This document shows, piece after piece, positions 47,410 to 50,356 of a stretch of DNA of 64,000 nucleotides (the first letter of the stretch is position 1; the number at the start of each line of letters is the position of its first letter). The notes below the pieces were generated by a model, which made no database searches, had not been told where the DNA came from, and saw nothing but the letters and a program-made list of their open reading frames with translations. Both the position numbers and the translations under genes were made by a program. Source of the DNA: Escherichia coli (GTDB taxonomy: Bacteria; Pseudomonadota; Gammaproteobacteria; Enterobacterales; Enterobacteriaceae); assembly GCF_024223415.1 (NCBI RefSeq), contig NZ_CP100500.1; one strand, 5' to 3'.

Positions 47410-47835
47410 GTGACAAGAGGATATTTCCTGATGGAGCAGGCAAATATTTTTCAAGAGATATTCGAACACGTTAGAAGTAATTTATACTTCCCATGGTTTT
47501 ACTCCGAATTAAAACGCCATAATATTGCGCATTATATTTATTATCTGGCTACTGATAATATAAGACTAATTACTCATGATGATAATGTTTTATTAGTTCG
47601 AGGCAGTAGAGGACTTGTGAAAGTTAGCACATCAAAAAAACCAGAGTTAATTAAAGAAGCAGCCAGGAATCTTATATCAGGTAAATCTACATTTCACCAA
47701 TATCGTCTCACTTTAGCAAAAGCAGGTGTTTATCGCTGGATTACAGATATAGATAAAAACATACGGTTTTACTATTCGTTTGATCACGATCTTTTGTACA
47801 TGGAAGATGTTGAAAATAACAGACCATTAATATAG
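47410..47835 (+). CDS. hypothetical protein (moron; possibly YbcV/DUF1398-like, unverified)
   Basis: 141 aa on the strand opposite to late genes, in an AT-rich island between terminase and lysis genes. Confidence 0.5.
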   Translation: MTRGYFLMEQANIFQEIFEHVRSNLYFPWFYSELKRHNIAHYIYYLATDNIRLITHDDNVLLVRGSRGLVKVSTSKKPELIKEAARNLISGKSTFHQYRLTLAKAGVYRWITDIDKNIRFYYSFDHDLLYMEDVENNRPLI

Positions 47836-48152
47836 GAATTAATTAAATCAGCAGTCCGGTTTCATACACCTCTGTACCGGACTAGCTGCATGAAGAGCAA
47901 ACCCGCGAAGCATAAAAGCGGTAAACCCAGGTGTGTATCGTTTTTTATTATTCCCACACACTCGTGCTCCCCGTCGGACTACACTCATGGTTAACGAAGG
48001 AATACAGCGACGATACGGCGCACAGAAATAAATCAGGCATCTATTGACCTCATAAAAACGATGCATTGCCTTGCTATGAGTAATGGTGTCAATTAAAGCT
48101 TTGGCTCTCTCTAGCCCCGGCGAATCTTCAGCGGATTATCCTTGGCCGGTTT

Positions 48153-48617
48153 TTATCTGAGGCATTGCTCTCGAATGTATAGCTGTGCCCCTTCAAGTTG
48201 TTTTTGCATTATTATCAGTCGCTCTCTGAGGGTGAAATAATCCCGTTCAGCGGTGTCTGCCAGTCGGGGGGCGGCTGCATTACCCACGCCGGAGGCGGCG
48301 GTGGCTTCACGCACGGTCTGACAGACTGCTCTGATGCGCAACCGACGACGACCAGCGGCAATATCATCACGAAGAGCATCATTTTCAGCTTTCGCATCAG
48401 CTAATTCCTTCAGGTATTTTGCATCGAGTGCAGTAATATCACGCTGGCGCTGCTGCATGTCAGTAATGGCTGCATTCGCCTGGCTGAGTTTTGTCTTCGC
48501 ATCATCTCTCTGCTCTTTGTAGATGATGGCATTATCGCGGTAATGGGCTATTGCCAGCAACAGCGCACCACTGACCACCAGTAGAATAACAATCACCGCA
48601 TACAGAACCCGTTTCAT
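48153..48617 (-). CDS. i-spanin Rz
   Basis: Start at internal ATG (MKRVLYAVIVILLVV, N-terminal TM); coiled-coil periplasmic domain; track ORF to 48668. Confidence 0.85.
   Translation of the reverse strand: MKRVLYAVIVILLVVSGALLLAIAHYRDNAIIYKEQRDDAKTKLSQANAAITDMQQRQRDITALDAKYLKELADAKAENDALRDDIAAGRRRLRIRAVCQTVREATAASGVGNAAAPRLADTAERDYFTLRERLIIMQKQLEGAQLYIREQCLR
48215..48397 (-). CDS. o-spanin Rz1 (lipoprotein embedded in Rz, +1 frame)
   Basis: 60 aa; lipobox LVVVGC; proline-rich; wholly inside Rz. Confidence 0.85.
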   Translation of the reverse strand: MRKLKMMLFVMILPLVVVGCASEQSVRPCVKPPPPPAWVMQPPPDWQTPLNGIISPSESD

Positions 48618-48618
48618 T

Positions 48619-48837
48619 TCACCACCAGCGTATCTGAGCAATGAAATAACCGGAGGCCATAATCGCAAACACCAGCCAGAAAAGAATGAATTTCCAGGTG
48701 GATAATTTTTCAGCCATAGTTCGAATCTCCCGAATCAGTTTGCTAAAATCAAACACACTTTCTCCTTTGGCTTTTCCGGAGTCAGGAAACACAAAAAACC
48801 CGACTGTTCGCGCAATCGGGGGTCTGCTCTTATTCAC
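48619..48837 (-). CDS. small hypothetical membrane protein between endolysin and Rz
   Basis: ORF up to 72 aa, possibly 32 aa from internal Met; hydrophobic C-terminal helix; stop overlaps Rz start region. Confidence 0.3.
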   Translation of the reverse strand: MNKSRPPIARTVGFFVFPDSGKAKGESVFDFSKLIREIRTMAEKLSTWKFILFWLVFAIMASGYFIAQIRWW

Positions 48838-48914
48838 TACTTCAATTCATTTATGACTAATATCGTGTTATCCACCCGCGTTGGCCAACGTCATTTTTCA
48901 GAGAAATATTCTGC

Positions 48915-49448
48915 TTATCTGTCGATCCCCCAGCACACTAACGCGCTCTCCTGATCACGACGAATAACCTGACCGTAACAGTTATTTGAACGAATGCGGC
49001 AATCACGCCCCCTGTCCTTAATCCACCAGCGAATCGCCTCGCATGCACCTTTACGATCACCAGCATTCAGCCGTTTATAAAACGTCGACGGAAAACACTT
49101 ACCGGGGCCAATGTTATAGGGACAAAATGACGCGATACCCGCTTTTTGTGGTTCGGTCAGTGGTACTTTAATATTGCGCTCCACCCATGCCAGAGCCTTA
49201 TCACGCTCAATAGCGTTAACCTGGTCGCATTTTTCCTTCGACAGTTTCATATTGGGAAAAACGGGTTTTCCATCCACCACTGTGGCACCCCGACAGATGG
49301 TCCATATGCCGGAACCATCACGGTATGCCATTGTGTGGTTACCTTCTTTTTCGTCCAGAAACTGGTCAAGTATCTGAGGAGCAGATGCACCAGCACCAAT
49401 CAGCGCCAGAACGGCAGCCGACAGGCCGTATTTGACTTTTACGTTCAT
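48915..49448 (-). CDS. SAR endolysin (T4-lysozyme-type, R21-like)
   Basis: 177 aa; N-terminal signal-anchor-release segment; catalytic E-x8-D-x5-T (EGNHTMAYRDGSGIWT). Confidence 0.9.
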   Translation of the reverse strand: MNVKVKYGLSAAVLALIGAGASAPQILDQFLDEKEGNHTMAYRDGSGIWTICRGATVVDGKPVFPNMKLSKEKCDQVNAIERDKALAWVERNIKVPLTEPQKAGIASFCPYNIGPGKCFPSTFYKRLNAGDRKGACEAIRWWIKDRGRDCRIRSNNCYGQVIRRDQESALVCWGIDR

Positions 49449-49553: not shown

Positions 49554-49826
49554 ATGGACAATAACACCATTTCTCTTCAGGAGTTGCTCGACTGCATTTC
49601 CAGGCTTCGGGATGATGTTAATGCCCTTACTGTCGCATTTTCATATCTGGCATTGTCAATTCCCAGGGAACAAATGCAACCAACACTGGCATCGCTCCAG
49701 CTTGAATCACACAGCCCAAAATGGTCCCAGGAACAACAAAATTCCTTCAAGTGGCTGGTGGCATTACTGGAAGATAAATATGCTGTTAAAATTAAAATTC
49801 CGGCGGAGTCTTCAGAGAACCAGTAA
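49554..49826 (+). CDS. hypothetical protein, opposite strand within lysis cassette
   Basis: 90 aa; RBS aagagga upstream; protein-like composition while the antisense frame is low-complexity. Confidence 0.45.
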   Translation: MDNNTISLQELLDCISRLRDDVNALTVAFSYLALSIPREQMQPTLASLQLESHSPKWSQEQQNSFKWLVALLEDKYAVKIKIPAESSENQ

Positions 49827-50136
49827 TTTTTCCCGGTAGCTTTACTTTGTAAGTTATCCACACATTCTGCGCCTCTAAAATTATGGGGTGCTTTTCTGGC
49901 GACAGCTCATTCCCTTCACATAACCCGGCAGCAACATCCAGGAAGACCTGTCTGATTCTCCTTCTGGCTGCTGCCTCATAAAACTCCAGTGCAGCACCTT
50001 CAACACGATCCATAGTGATATCAAGGTCAAAAATCTCACCGTCAAAGCGTTCTTTGTCTTGTAAGGCTAAAGTTACCGCAACTTTATTCTCAAAATTACG
50101 GACTCCTTTCACAACCAGTTCGTAGACTTGAGTCAT
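49792..50136 (-). CDS. hypothetical protein between holin and endolysin (possibly DUF1327/YdfR-like, unverified)
   Basis: 114 aa; starts 5 nt after holin stop on the late-gene strand. Confidence 0.55.
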   Translation of the reverse strand: MTQVYELVVKGVRNFENKVAVTLALQDKERFDGEIFDLDITMDRVEGAALEFYEAAARRRIRQVFLDVAAGLCEGNELSPEKHPIILEAQNVWITYKVKLPGKITGSLKTPPEF

Positions 50137-50140
50137 TGGA

Positions 50141-50356
50141 TTACTCTCCTCTCTCAGCCTTACGCCTGTCTTCTTTAATCTTGAAATAAAGGTTAGTCAG
50201 ATACGTCAGCATGCCAAATACCAGACTACCCAATACACCTATTGCCGCCCACTGTGAGGGCGTGACTTTATCGAGCAACTGTAAAAACCAGTAGCCAGCA
50301 CTGCCTGCAGAGGTGCCGTAGGCGATGCCCGTTGTTAACTTATCCATGGATTTCAT
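50141..50356 (-). CDS. pinholin (phage 21 S-like), dual-start motif
   Basis: Internal start [26 protein letters not shown]... closely matches S21; two Met codons 3 codons apart; track ORF to 50440. Confidence 0.85.

Follow-up and report, generated by a model that had tools for sequence, protein, structure and literature searches.

All genes of the region described here lie on the minus strand of the window, by which we mean the whole 64-kb stretch of DNA that was analysed (Table 1). The endolysin, which we take to be of the SAR type from its N-terminal sequence, and Rz are separated by 297 bp, in agreement with the gap of about 300 bp given in the preliminary description. A small ORF fills the end of this gap, and downstream of it Rz and Rz1 are separate intact genes. 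In the Qin and DLP12 prophages of K-12, whose cassettes share the general layout of holin, lysozyme and Rz/Rz1, the small ORF is absent and R and Rz overlap. The sequence block that follows the endolysin stop is common only to lysis-cassette copies and absent from copies among tail genes, and by this comparison it is outside the core cassette; the Sakai prophage Sp15 keeps the block and diverges exactly at the position of the hairpin that comes next. A collinear relative, 98–99.6% identical, carries a Q-family antiterminator ~3.5 kb upstream of the holin.

Table 1. Features of the endolysin–Rz interval and its flanks
Feature	Position	Strand	Remarks
Phage 21-type lysozyme (endolysin)	48915..49448	-	Upstream of the gap; PF00959, E = 2.7e-23; phrog_7 endolysin; hydrophobic N-terminus
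Conserved block after endolysin stop	48838..48914	-	CTGAAAAATG...GGATAACA...; aligns with Stx phages and Salmonella L007
Intrinsic-terminator-like hairpin	48789..48820	-	Stem-loop 48820-48799, then TTTTTTGTGT; terminator scan
SD-proximal hairpin region	48762..48786	-	Anti-SD CTCC / TTCCT pairs with GGAG / AGGAG; weak in the window's copy
Shine–Dalgarno (SD) AAGGAG	48762..48767	-	5 nt upstream of GTG; read from sequence
45-aa ORF	48619..48756	-	GTG 48756-48754, TGA 48621-48619; product MFDFSKLIREIRTMAEKLSTWKFILFWLVFAIMASGYFIAQIRWW
Internal-start 32-aa isoform (possible)	48619..48717	-	ATG 48717-48715; GGGAG 48731-48727, 9-nt spacer
Putative extended -10 promoter TGCTAAAAT	48741..48749	+	Antisense to the ORF, codons 3-6
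Predicted ~74-nt cis-antisense RNA	48755..48830	+	Complementary to start codon, SD and leader; ends at the hairpin
Rz (i-spanin)	48153..48617	-	PF03245, E = 1.9e-48; PF06085, E = 3e-18
Rz1	48215-48397		Embedded in Rz

A Conserved 45-Codon Gene

The ORF listing gives a 72-aa GTG frame at 48619-48837 that ends in the 32 residues MAEKLSTWKFILFWLVFAIMASGYFIAQIRWW, and it was this frame that the preliminary description took for a gene. We find a real coding ORF on the minus strand, but the gene has 45 codons, and the product to be annotated is the one that starts at the downstream GTG. Codons 1-27 of the 72-aa frame span the intrinsic-terminator hairpin and differ among relatives through covariation of that hairpin; an indel breaks them in strain RM13514, and in the Salmonella, Citrobacter and Yersinia copies the frame is closed by a TAA five codons before the GTG. 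At the position of this GTG, nearly every lineage has a GTG, TTG or ATG with an SD ~5 nt upstream, and the spacing of the SD is retained despite diverged surroundings (GGGAGG in L011, AGGGAG in L007, AAGGAGG in L019 and CGAGGAA in L152).

Among 15 non-redundant homologues, pN/pS was 0.33 in the frame of the ORF compared with 0.66 and 1.85 in the other frames, and the phrog_6632 profile matched the product end to end (residues 1-45 on positions 1-45 of 45, E = 5.2e-27). Together with the conserved start and SD, these results uphold the earlier view that a single-pass membrane peptide is truly encoded next to Rz, and by sequence comparison 48619..48756 is a real conserved gene under purifying selection. 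The pS value was 0.29 in codons 1-13 versus 0.66 in codons 14-45, the part encoding the membrane helix, where pN/pS was 0.31. Conservation at the nucleotide level only does not describe the ORF as a whole, although codons 1-13 carry added constraint of that kind.

A shorter, 32-aa form beginning at ATG 48717 is likely from the conservation of its start region. Residue M14 is invariant in 15/15 non-redundant ORFs, E10 is always encoded by GAG and R9 by CGG or AGG in 14/15, and because this R9 codon precedes GAG, a GGGAG stands ahead of the internal ATG. In distant members this place is taken by AAGGAG or GAGGTGA, and the Serratia copy (L022) has the short form only. Two in-frame starts with an SD each, and hence membrane peptides of two lengths, would resemble the dual-start holin/antiholin genes S107/S105 of lambda and S71/S68 of phage 21. 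The starts of those genes are 2-3 codons apart, whereas those of the small ORF are separated by 13 codons and precede a single C-terminal helix with no match to a holin profile.

The predicted protein agrees with the earlier view of the C-terminal 32 residues as one membrane helix: the mean Kyte–Doolittle hydropathy of residues 23-42 of the 45-aa form is ~2.0, and AlphaFold2 places helices at residues 4-17 and 20-44 (mean pLDDT 82). The product is predicted to consist of an amphipathic N-terminal cytoplasmic helix and one C-terminal membrane helix. It would be a tail-anchored inner-membrane peptide with ~22 cytoplasmic residues and only RWW on the periplasmic side, the membrane helix carrying a small-xxx-small motif. 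The 45-aa ORF had no match in Pfam (E up to 0.01), and hence none to any Pfam toxin family, nor in NCBIfam (E up to 1) or PADLOC (E up to 1); among the described type I toxin families (Hok/Gef, Ldr, Ibs, TisB, ShoB and others), none was matched in Pfam or NCBIfam. Neither the 45-aa nor the 72-aa form matched a holin or spanin profile of Pfam or PHROG in searches that detected the neighbouring S21-type holin. The architecture of an i-spanin, with an N-terminal membrane helix, a long periplasmic coiled coil and a partner lipoprotein, differs from that of the small ORF, the helix of which is C-terminal.

The ORF belongs to the same protein family as phrog_6632 and the RefSeq hypothetical protein WP_000459345.1. 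The phrog_6632 record covers the ORF only and notes no function, hairpin, antisense motif or contexts outside lysis genes. The 45-aa form is annotated by PGAP directly before the "lysis protein" Rz in the O145:H28 strain RM13514, and in the closest RefSeq relative of the window the small gene is left unannotated. Full-text literature searches by peptide sequence and PHROG id found no papers. Annotations either omit the gene or call it "hypothetical", and it is not known to figure in models of lambdoid lysis.

Genomic Contexts of the Cassette

An initial scan of viral contigs gave near-identical E. coli copies only and added little diversity. A profile search of the full library yielded 38 cluster representatives at 50% identity, which keep xDxSKLIRELRxMxEKLxxW[KR]F followed by the membrane helix. 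Copies in a lysis context, adjacent to an endolysin, make up the majority of the loci sampled, and Rz lies directly downstream in 124 of the 143 loci. They occur in phages of E. coli, Salmonella, Citrobacter and Edwardsiella with different holins and endolysins; the cassette is preceded by at least six endolysin families, and in at least one case (L153) an unrelated spanin pair comes next. With this many endolysin families and with other holin types beside the gene, a particular tie to SAR endolysins or pinholins can be rejected.

In at least a dozen other lineages the gene is found among tail or head genes. The cassette lies between the baseplate V and W genes in L018, L022 and L149, after baseplate J/I or tail fibre genes in L020 and L019, and between Mu-F-like and scaffold genes in L028; in L024–L027 it stands beside ParE, RelB–YafQ, HicAB and PrlF–YhaV systems, some copies being located in TA-rich accessory regions before the terminase. 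Other neighbours are antirepressor-like genes and, in L131, a fimbrial-like gene. Outside lysis contexts the gene that follows is not related to Rz, and in many cases an SD of its own precedes it. The preliminary description implied a gene specific to the lysis cassette and filling an unusual R–Rz gap, which does not agree with the presence of the gene and its upstream hairpin at baseplate, head, tail and TA-rich sites. The comparison of loci shows the cassette moving as a unit into differing late-gene neighbourhoods, and its occurrence among the baseplate, head and TA-rich regions of other genera points to a portable late-operon cassette. As the gene travels between phages with an upstream terminator hairpin of its own, and perhaps with a promoter for an antisense RNA, it does not appear to be a dedicated lysis gene.

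These contexts bear directly on the idea of a lysis-accessory protein that acts with the pinholin, SAR endolysin or i-spanin to set the timing of lysis, whether it serves as an antiholin, partners the holin, works like a releasin or regulates the membrane helix of Rz, with the long and short forms as a dual-start pair like S107/S105. The position directly upstream of the i-spanin in phages of four genera with differing holins and endolysins would fit such a role, as would the L153 copy, which has a GH19 endolysin on one side and an unrelated, separated spanin pair on the other, and the two conserved starts with an SD for each. The same slot in Sakai Sp15 is occupied by an unrelated small ORF with a membrane helix, of the ECs_5741 family, and the two stand in tandem in L154 and L155. 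A precedent exists in Lcc6 of Shewanella phage LambdaSo, a small membrane protein required for lysis and encoded away from the lysis cassette (bioRxiv 10.1101/2024.01.23.576932). Lcc6 and the Mu protein gp25, called "releasin" (PMC9239132), are short single-pass inner-membrane proteins to which the small ORF product may be analogous, but their phages use a pinholin and a SAR endolysin, whereas the small-ORF family is found with soluble endolysins and non-pinholin holins too. Against a lysis role stand the dozen or more lineages with the gene among tail, baseplate and head genes or in TA-rich regions, the lack of a consistent association with SAR endolysins or pinholins and of a holin or spanin profile match, and the absence of the gene from Qin and DLP12 despite the same general cassette layout. 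Moreover, a homologous Rz is common to most lysis-context copies, so their position may reflect common descent rather than function. We regard a dedicated lysis accessory as unlikely.

ECs_5741 itself encodes 48 aa, similar in size to the small ORF, with one predicted membrane helix. In Sp15 it takes the place of the small ORF together with ant, following this antirepressor gene and lacking the cassette hairpin. Homology between the two families was rejected (hhalign probability 1%).

Covarying Hairpins Upstream of the Gene

Flanked by an A-rich tract on its 5′ side and a T-rich tract on its 3′ side, the hairpin at 48789..48820 looks like a bidirectional terminator. It folds in both orientations, the sense orientation being the more stable in 16 of 21 lineages, and in all the lineages inspected apart from L111 and L022 it precedes the start by 33-48 nt. 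It is kept at 36-40% protein identity and 52-64% GC, metagenomic homologues included. Both this hairpin and the SD-proximal one travel with the gene and have compensatory changes; such changes were found in 11 of 13 base pairs of the cassette, and none of 500 shuffles attained the observed values. In the SD-proximal helix (columns 18-22/30-34), 4/5 pairs had compensatory changes, the variants being CCTTG/CAAGG, CGTTA/TAACG, CCTAT/ATAGG and GGCAG/CTGCC; the alignments show that the cassette hairpins covary. In L019, L023 and L163 the upstream hairpin is kept although a separate terminator directly precedes it. The hairpin belongs to the cassette of the small gene rather than to the endolysin. 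Folding of the leader varies among copies, with z = -3.7 in H-19B and z ~0 in the window, in whose copy both the SD hairpin and the antisense tail are weaker than in any other of the set. Rfam gave no match on either strand.

Neither a promoter scan nor inspection by eye revealed a sense promoter in the 33-48 nt that separate hairpin and SD. This matters for the idea that the cassette is a moron benefiting the lysogen, its product being a superinfection-exclusion or host-modulating inner-membrane factor like HK97 gp15 and the hairpin an insulator. Morons, reportedly defined for HK97 and HK022 by Juhala et al. (2000), typically have variable insertion sites between conserved late genes; the small gene resembles them in being present or absent between conserved neighbours (absent from Qin and DLP12 and found at many late-gene junctions), in its accessory neighbours, namely TA systems, antirepressor-like genes and the fimbrial-like gene, and in encoding what is predicted to be a small inner-membrane protein. 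A moron has its own promoter upstream and a terminator downstream, whereas the space before this gene holds no sigma-70-like promoter, the terminator is upstream and the stop adjoins the following gene. Several loci have two terminators ahead of the gene, which argues against autonomous expression in lysogens, and PADLOC gave no match. We consider a moron of this kind quite unlikely.

A Candidate Antisense Promoter inside the Gene

On the antisense strand of codons 3-6, 22 of the 26 lineages share, in register, the pattern TGnTAnnnT of an extended -10 element. Residue 3 may be D, N, E, H or Y, yet the middle base of its codon is always A (-7T); codon 4 invariably ends in T (-11A) and codon 5, whether for Ser or for Ile, in C (-14G). 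The invariant bases are those at informative promoter positions and have stayed fixed through amino-acid changes. A single occurrence is unremarkable, as the 64-kb window contains 88 matches to TGnTAnnnT against ~103 expected, or about one per 1,450 strand-bases, and the conservation of codons 3-6 is confounded by the conserved D-F-S-K residues and possible selection on the initiation region.

From the geometry of the -10 element and the hairpin, we infer an antisense RNA of ~74 nt over the start site. The T-rich tail that would end it is weak in the window's copy (TCTGCTCTTA) and strong in relatives (TTTTCGCTTTTAT). The greater average stability of the sense orientation suggests that the selected role of the hairpin may be sense-strand termination alone.

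Hfq-CRAC (Tree 2014, Table S2) and RIL-seq in EPEC (PMC8550237) located sRNAs elsewhere in the late regions of prophages and none at the cassette; the sole R–Rz region of these strains examined, that of Sakai Sp15, is one without the cassette. Two of the sRNAs, EcOnc22 of EHEC and PasB of EPEC, would resemble the candidate in length (~83-85 nt) and in lying on the opposite strand between lambdoid late genes, and both are less abundant or destabilised without Hfq. Identity with either can be rejected, since both lie between tail genes, EcOnc22 between those for tail assembly and host specificity, and are unrelated to the cassette in locus and sequence; the gap sequence of Sp15 is likewise unrelated. 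No EcOnc peak lies at an R–Rz junction, the PasB probe sequence is absent from the 64-kb window, and PasA, PasC and PasD were rejected as the candidate RNA because they are located upstream of the holin.

Junction with the Downstream Gene

The junction of the small ORF and Rz reads TGGTGGTGA-A-ATG. The preliminary description had the stop overlapping the start region of Rz, but the TGA and the Rz ATG (48617-48615) are one base apart. This 1-nt spacing recurs in 108 of the 143 loci with a downstream gene, and in most contexts the distance is short (1, 3, 7, 14 or -4 nt). With the stop 1 nt before the Rz ATG, translational coupling from the small ORF to Rz is plausible. Ribosomes that terminate at the UGA (48619-48621) could start again at the AUG of Rz, 1 nt further on; the cassette would then do the coupling that, in prophages with overlapping R and Rz, falls to the endolysin stop.

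The short distances in most contexts might also be taken to mean that the peptide sequence is unimportant, the ORF being a leader that delivers ribosomes to the next gene or the whole a pure RNA element (terminator, 3′UTR or antisense RNA). The strong nucleotide-level constraint on codons 1-13 and the conserved RNA helices point the same way. This explanation is nevertheless very improbable: purifying selection acts on the amino acids, those of the membrane helix included, distant homologues retain the hydrophobic helix and the W-K/R-F and GYxIGQIRWW motifs, and in L019, L020 and L025–L027 no gene follows closely.

Discussion

We favour, with a probability of about 0.5, a self-contained mobile late-operon cassette that is transcribed by read-through, whose translation is kept low and whose product is a membrane-active accessory peptide. 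On the minus strand, the cassette would consist of a GC-rich hairpin, a short leader, a weak GTG start and the 45-codon gene. As no sense promoter fits between hairpin and SD, the gene is probably transcribed only by read-through from upstream late transcription, which in this lambdoid prophage would mean Q-antiterminated polymerase. Without antitermination of the polymerase, efficient termination within a tail operon would have polar effects on essential genes. Translation would be held low by the GTG start and by the small leader hairpin, which abuts or may occlude the SD; a cis-antisense RNA from TGCTAAAAT, pairing with the start codon and SD, would probably lower it further and end at the upstream hairpin, in the manner of SymR for symE or the P22 sar RNA for ant. 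The peptide might then be a tightly limited membrane-active accessory factor, toxin-like or holin-like, rather than a core lysis component. The grounds for a toxin-like or holin-like role are size, hydrophobicity, tight control of expression and neighbourhood.

The likeness to type I TA systems (symE/SymR, hok/Sok, ibs/Sib) comprises a small hydrophobic membrane peptide (45 aa, <60 aa), a weak start codon and SD adjoining a hairpin, horizontal mobility and type II TA systems as neighbours of the cassette. In SymR the antisense promoter lies just inside the ORF and the ~75-nt RNA spans the start codon and SD, and the candidate promoter of the cassette, likewise just inside the ORF, would give an RNA of ~75 nt across the same elements. 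The cassette differs in having no promoter for a toxin mRNA, in lying in late operons behind a terminator and in the membrane helix being C-terminal rather than N-terminal. Phage P22 provides a short cis-antisense RNA, sar, that is complementary to the ribosome-binding region of ant, a gene inside a phage operon. The likeness to sar would be one of proposed mechanism only, as target, sequence and position all differ and sar is established experimentally.

A more specific version, which we find rather doubtful, is that the cassette is an undescribed type-I-toxin-like module of late operons, expressed by read-through of its own bidirectional terminator, silenced by the ~75-nt antisense RNA and gating translation of the next late gene. 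If true, it would be a portable switch under antisense control, acting on the expression of late genes or on when lysis occurs, the gated gene being Rz here and baseplate W or a head protease elsewhere. The antisense promoter, if real, would be a compact case of a promoter embedded in codons and a portable way to keep a membrane-active peptide silent until late transcription.

Among 5,426 complete E. coli genomes, 1,230 contain the R–Rz gap sequence, and in 869 its coverage is 80% or more. The sequence also occurs in 41 phage records, and 39 of these likewise show at least 80% coverage. The phage records include H-19B and many Stx1a, Stx2a and Stx2c phages. Shiga toxin exits the cell at phage lysis, so an effect of the peptide on lysis timing or Rz synthesis, if true, would bear on the release of the toxin.

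Gene model and layout of the lysis region

The lysis genes of the window all lie on the minus strand, and the endolysin and Rz are separated by 297 bp, matching the gap of about 300 bp reported in the preliminary description. The hydrophobic ORF that it placed there, a GTG-initiated frame of 72 aa (48619–48837), is present in a mechanical ORF list and ends in the hydrophobic sequence noted, but its extent was rejected. The window was compared by alignment with H-19B and other Stx phages, prophages of O145 and of another E. coli (L011), and a P22-like prophage of Salmonella (L007): sequence upstream of 48756 varies freely, contains an indel and carries an in-frame stop in several lineages. An intrinsic-terminator-like hairpin, its stem-loop followed by TTTTTTGTGT, also falls within the 72-aa frame. 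Conserved instead are a start codon at 48756, GTG or TTG in every lineage with four exceptions, and an SD about 5 nt upstream, both retained though the flanking bases are wholly different. The exceptions are ATG in distant members, one GTA copy, longer N-termini in two loci (L028, L161) and a truncated Serratia copy (L022). The GTA copy, in a viral contig with the remaining ORF intact, may reflect a sequencing error, decay of the gene or reliance on the internal ATG.

The 45-aa form is annotated by PGAP in strain RM13514 (WP_000459345.1) and matches the 45-position profile phrog_6632 end to end (E = 5e-27); the family already has a catalogue entry, as a hypothetical protein. New here are the correct gene model, the cassette architecture, the non-lysis distribution and a codon-embedded antisense promoter candidate.

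Coordinates of features in the window and in compared loci
Feature	Location	Strand	Remark
S21-type holin	50141–50356	−	
YdfR/DUF1327 gene	49792–50136	−	between holin and endolysin
90-aa ORF (phrog_2411)	49554–49826	+	between holin and endolysin
Phage 21-type lysozyme (endolysin)	48915–49448	−	
Conserved block	48838–48914	−	about 77 nt, right after endolysin stop; CTGAAAAATG...GGATAACA...
Cassette hairpin stem-loop	48820–48799		
Cassette ORF	48619–48756	−	45 aa
Extended −10 motif	48741–48749	+	TGCTAAAAT, opposite codons 3–6
Rz	48153–48617	−	
Rz1	48215–48397	−	embedded in Rz
Site of the IS2 in the closest RefSeq relative	48536–48540		inside Rz; L001 3402–4676 / L167 7557–8888
Segment beside DUF1398 gene	47848–48150		about 300 nt, no convincing ORF
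DUF1398 gene	47410–47835	+	between Rz and small terminase subunit
ECs_5741-family ORFs	L160 2249–2395; L154 2441–2575; L155 2632–2766		L160, Sakai ECs_5741
GTA start	L146 2501–2503		viral contig
EcOnc22 gap	L157 1192–1431		240 nt, Sakai Sp15

Several neighboring features were recorded. The 90-aa ORF and the YdfR/DUF1327 gene are convergent and overlap by 35 nt at their 3' ends, which suggests another accessory insert within the lysis cassette. The DUF1398 region is a further accessory slot, its equivalent position being held by K-12 ydfO and ybcV. Stx phages share the conserved block following the endolysin, as does a Salmonella phage carrying a different endolysin. The block is also retained in Sakai Sp15, where similarity stops exactly at the hairpin position; a recombination boundary is one possible explanation, a 3'UTR element belonging to the endolysin mRNA another. 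In the closest RefSeq relative, E. coli GDSC2BY4G (98–99.6% identical and collinear), Rz is split about 80 nt (roughly 26 codons) into the gene by a 1,332-bp IS2, unlike the intact Rz of the window; the PGAP annotation of that strain still has a "lysis protein" downstream of the insertion and lacks the small ORF.

Coding evidence and predicted protein

Among 15 non-redundant 45-codon homologues analyzed with the Nei–Gojobori method, pN/pS was 0.33 in the ORF frame (pS 0.54), 0.66 in frame +1 (pS 0.34) and 1.85 in frame +2 (pS 0.16). A full-library profile search gave 38 clusters at 50% identity, with called lengths of 32–86 aa, which have in common x-D-x-S-K-L-I-R-E-L-R-x-M-x-E-K-L-x-x-W-K/R-F followed by a hydrophobic helix; a C-terminal G-Y-x-I-G-Q-I-R-W-W is frequent. 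As the motif is shared by distant members, their N-terminal 13 residues are conserved as protein. The product is predicted to form an amphipathic helix, with a hydrophobic moment of up to 0.64, and, in agreement with the single C-terminal helix seen earlier, one membrane helix at residues 23–42. Five Lys/Arg precede this helix and one follows it, so the positive-inside rule suggests a tail-anchored protein oriented N-in/C-out.

A 32-aa isoform starting at M14, the stretch first noticed, is plausible from the sequence: M14 is invariant, the E10 codon is always GAG, and R9 is a rare CGG or AGG in 14 of the 15 ORFs, placing GGGAG 9 nt before the ATG at 48717. Distant homologues have AAGGAG or GAGGTGA at this position, and the Serratia copy L022 keeps only the 32–33-aa part.

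A portable hairpin cassette

Nearly every lineage whose sequence was read has a GC-rich hairpin, with an A-rich tract 5' and a T-rich tract 3', 33–48 nt upstream of the start (exceptions, L111 and the truncated L022), together with another small hairpin that adjoins or overlaps the SD. The arrangement extends to metagenomic homologues with 36–40% protein identity and 52–64% GC. Across 21 aligned lineages, compensatory changes occur at 11 of the 13 base pairs of the consensus; the observed values were reached in none of 500 shuffles, and slid controls were far lower. Three loci retain the hairpin despite a separate terminator directly in front, and by this sequence evidence it belongs to the small ORF, not to the endolysin.

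A downstream gene was callable in 143 loci. In 124 of these it is Rz, directly following, and in 108 the distance to Rz is exactly 1 nt; closely related prophages from E. coli and Salmonella make up most of the sample. In other loci, the cassette is flanked by baseplate V-like and W-like genes (Yersinia L018, Serratia L022, L149), follows baseplate J/I-like or tail-fibre genes (L020, L019), or adjoins a tail K-like gene (L112). It also separates a Mu-F-like head gene from a scaffold or protease gene (L028), has virion genes on either side (L021), and occurs in accessory regions upstream of terminase beside ParE, RelB-YafQ, HicAB and PrlF-YhaV systems (L024–L027). In lysis contexts, at least six different endolysin families precede it, and in L153 an unrelated, separated spanin pair follows. 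The cassette was always co-oriented with its neighbors in the loci inspected. Given these varied contexts, endolysins and downstream genes, it is a portable late-operon insert, not a lysis-specific component.

K-12 Qin and DLP12 have no small ORF, and their R and Rz overlap. The Sakai Sp15 slot holds an antirepressor gene and a different 48-aa membrane ORF (ECs_5741) instead, and in L154 and L155 the cassette ORF and an ECs_5741-family ORF stand in tandem; no relatedness between the two families was detectable. The ECs_5741 family comprises single-helix membrane ORFs of ~44–48 aa immediately upstream of Rz, found alone after the antirepressor gene in Sakai Sp15 and in tandem in the two viral contigs. 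Small membrane-protein genes seem to collect in the position ahead of the i-spanin gene.

Sense expression and function

The hairpin-to-SD interval accommodates no sigma-70-like promoter, so sense transcription would have to pass through the hairpin. A Q-family antiterminator gene lies about 3.5 kb upstream of the holin in the collinear relative, and the likely route is therefore late transcription in which Q-modified polymerase reads through the hairpin. The non-ATG start (GTG or TTG) of most lineages and the SD-proximal hairpin suggest throttled translation; the H-19B leader has a folding z of −3.7, and the window's copy folds weakly.

The stop had been thought to overlap the Rz start, but the TGA at 48621–48619 abuts the ATG at 48617 with one base between (TGG TGG TGA A ATG). 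Only a weak SD-like GGTGG lies 4 nt upstream of the Rz ATG, and ribosomes could plausibly terminate at the small ORF and re-initiate at Rz, replacing the R–Rz overlap of Qin and DLP12. In other contexts, e.g., L020 and L022, the downstream gene has its own SD. Cassette mobility, tight expression control, TA-rich neighborhoods and the small hydrophobic product lead us to favor a membrane-active accessory peptide, toxin-like or holin-like, that would be made only late. A dedicated lysis-timing factor, with a precedent in Lcc6 of LambdaSo (bioRxiv 10.1101/2024.01.23.576932), is a serious rival; a moron benefiting the lysogen and a pure leader or RNA element are less likely.

A candidate antisense promoter

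In codons 1–13 (pS 0.29, pN/pS 0.39), synonymous change is suppressed relative to codons 14–45 (pS 0.66, pN/pS 0.31). The plus strand opposite codons 3–6 forms an extended −10 motif, TGnTAnnnT, in register in 22 of 26 lineages. On the coding strand, −7T corresponds to the middle base of codon 3, always A (residue D, N, E, H or Y); −11A to the third base of codon 4, invariably T whether the residue is Phe, Ile, Leu or Ser; and −14G to the third base of codon 5, always C, both in AGC (Ser) and in ATC (Ile) and still so at 64% GC. The invariant bases are those needed by a sigma-70 promoter, and low-information promoter positions vary. The motif alone is common, with 88 occurrences in the 64-kb window vs. 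about 103 expected, and conservation of codons 3–6 is confounded by that of the residues D-F-S-K themselves.

The antisense transcript would begin near 48755–48757, cross the start codon, SD and leader, and terminate after about 74 nt at the cassette hairpin. Most relatives have TTTTCGCTTTTAT as the antisense tail of this hairpin, and the tail is weak in the window's copy; on average, the hairpin is stabler in the sense orientation (16 of 21 lineages). SymR over symE and P22 sar over ant are antisense RNAs across the start/SD region, a geometry that the candidate RNA predicted here would share.

An Rfam search of the cassette region gave no match. The predicted cassette sRNA is not in the Sakai Hfq-CRAC list (Tree 2014) or the EPEC RIL-seq tables (PMC8550237), the one R–Rz region examined in those strains being that of Sakai Sp15, without the cassette; the sRNAs listed there for late operons are others, among them EcOnc22 and PasB, which lie between tail genes. 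EcOnc22, a published Hfq-bound RNA of ~85 nt, lies opposite the tail operon in a gap flanked by tail assembly and host-specificity genes. The PasB Northern probe, absent from the window, resembles this gap sequence, and the 83-nt EPEC PasB is thus probably a relative of EcOnc22. The two show that antisense sRNAs do exist inside lambdoid late operons.
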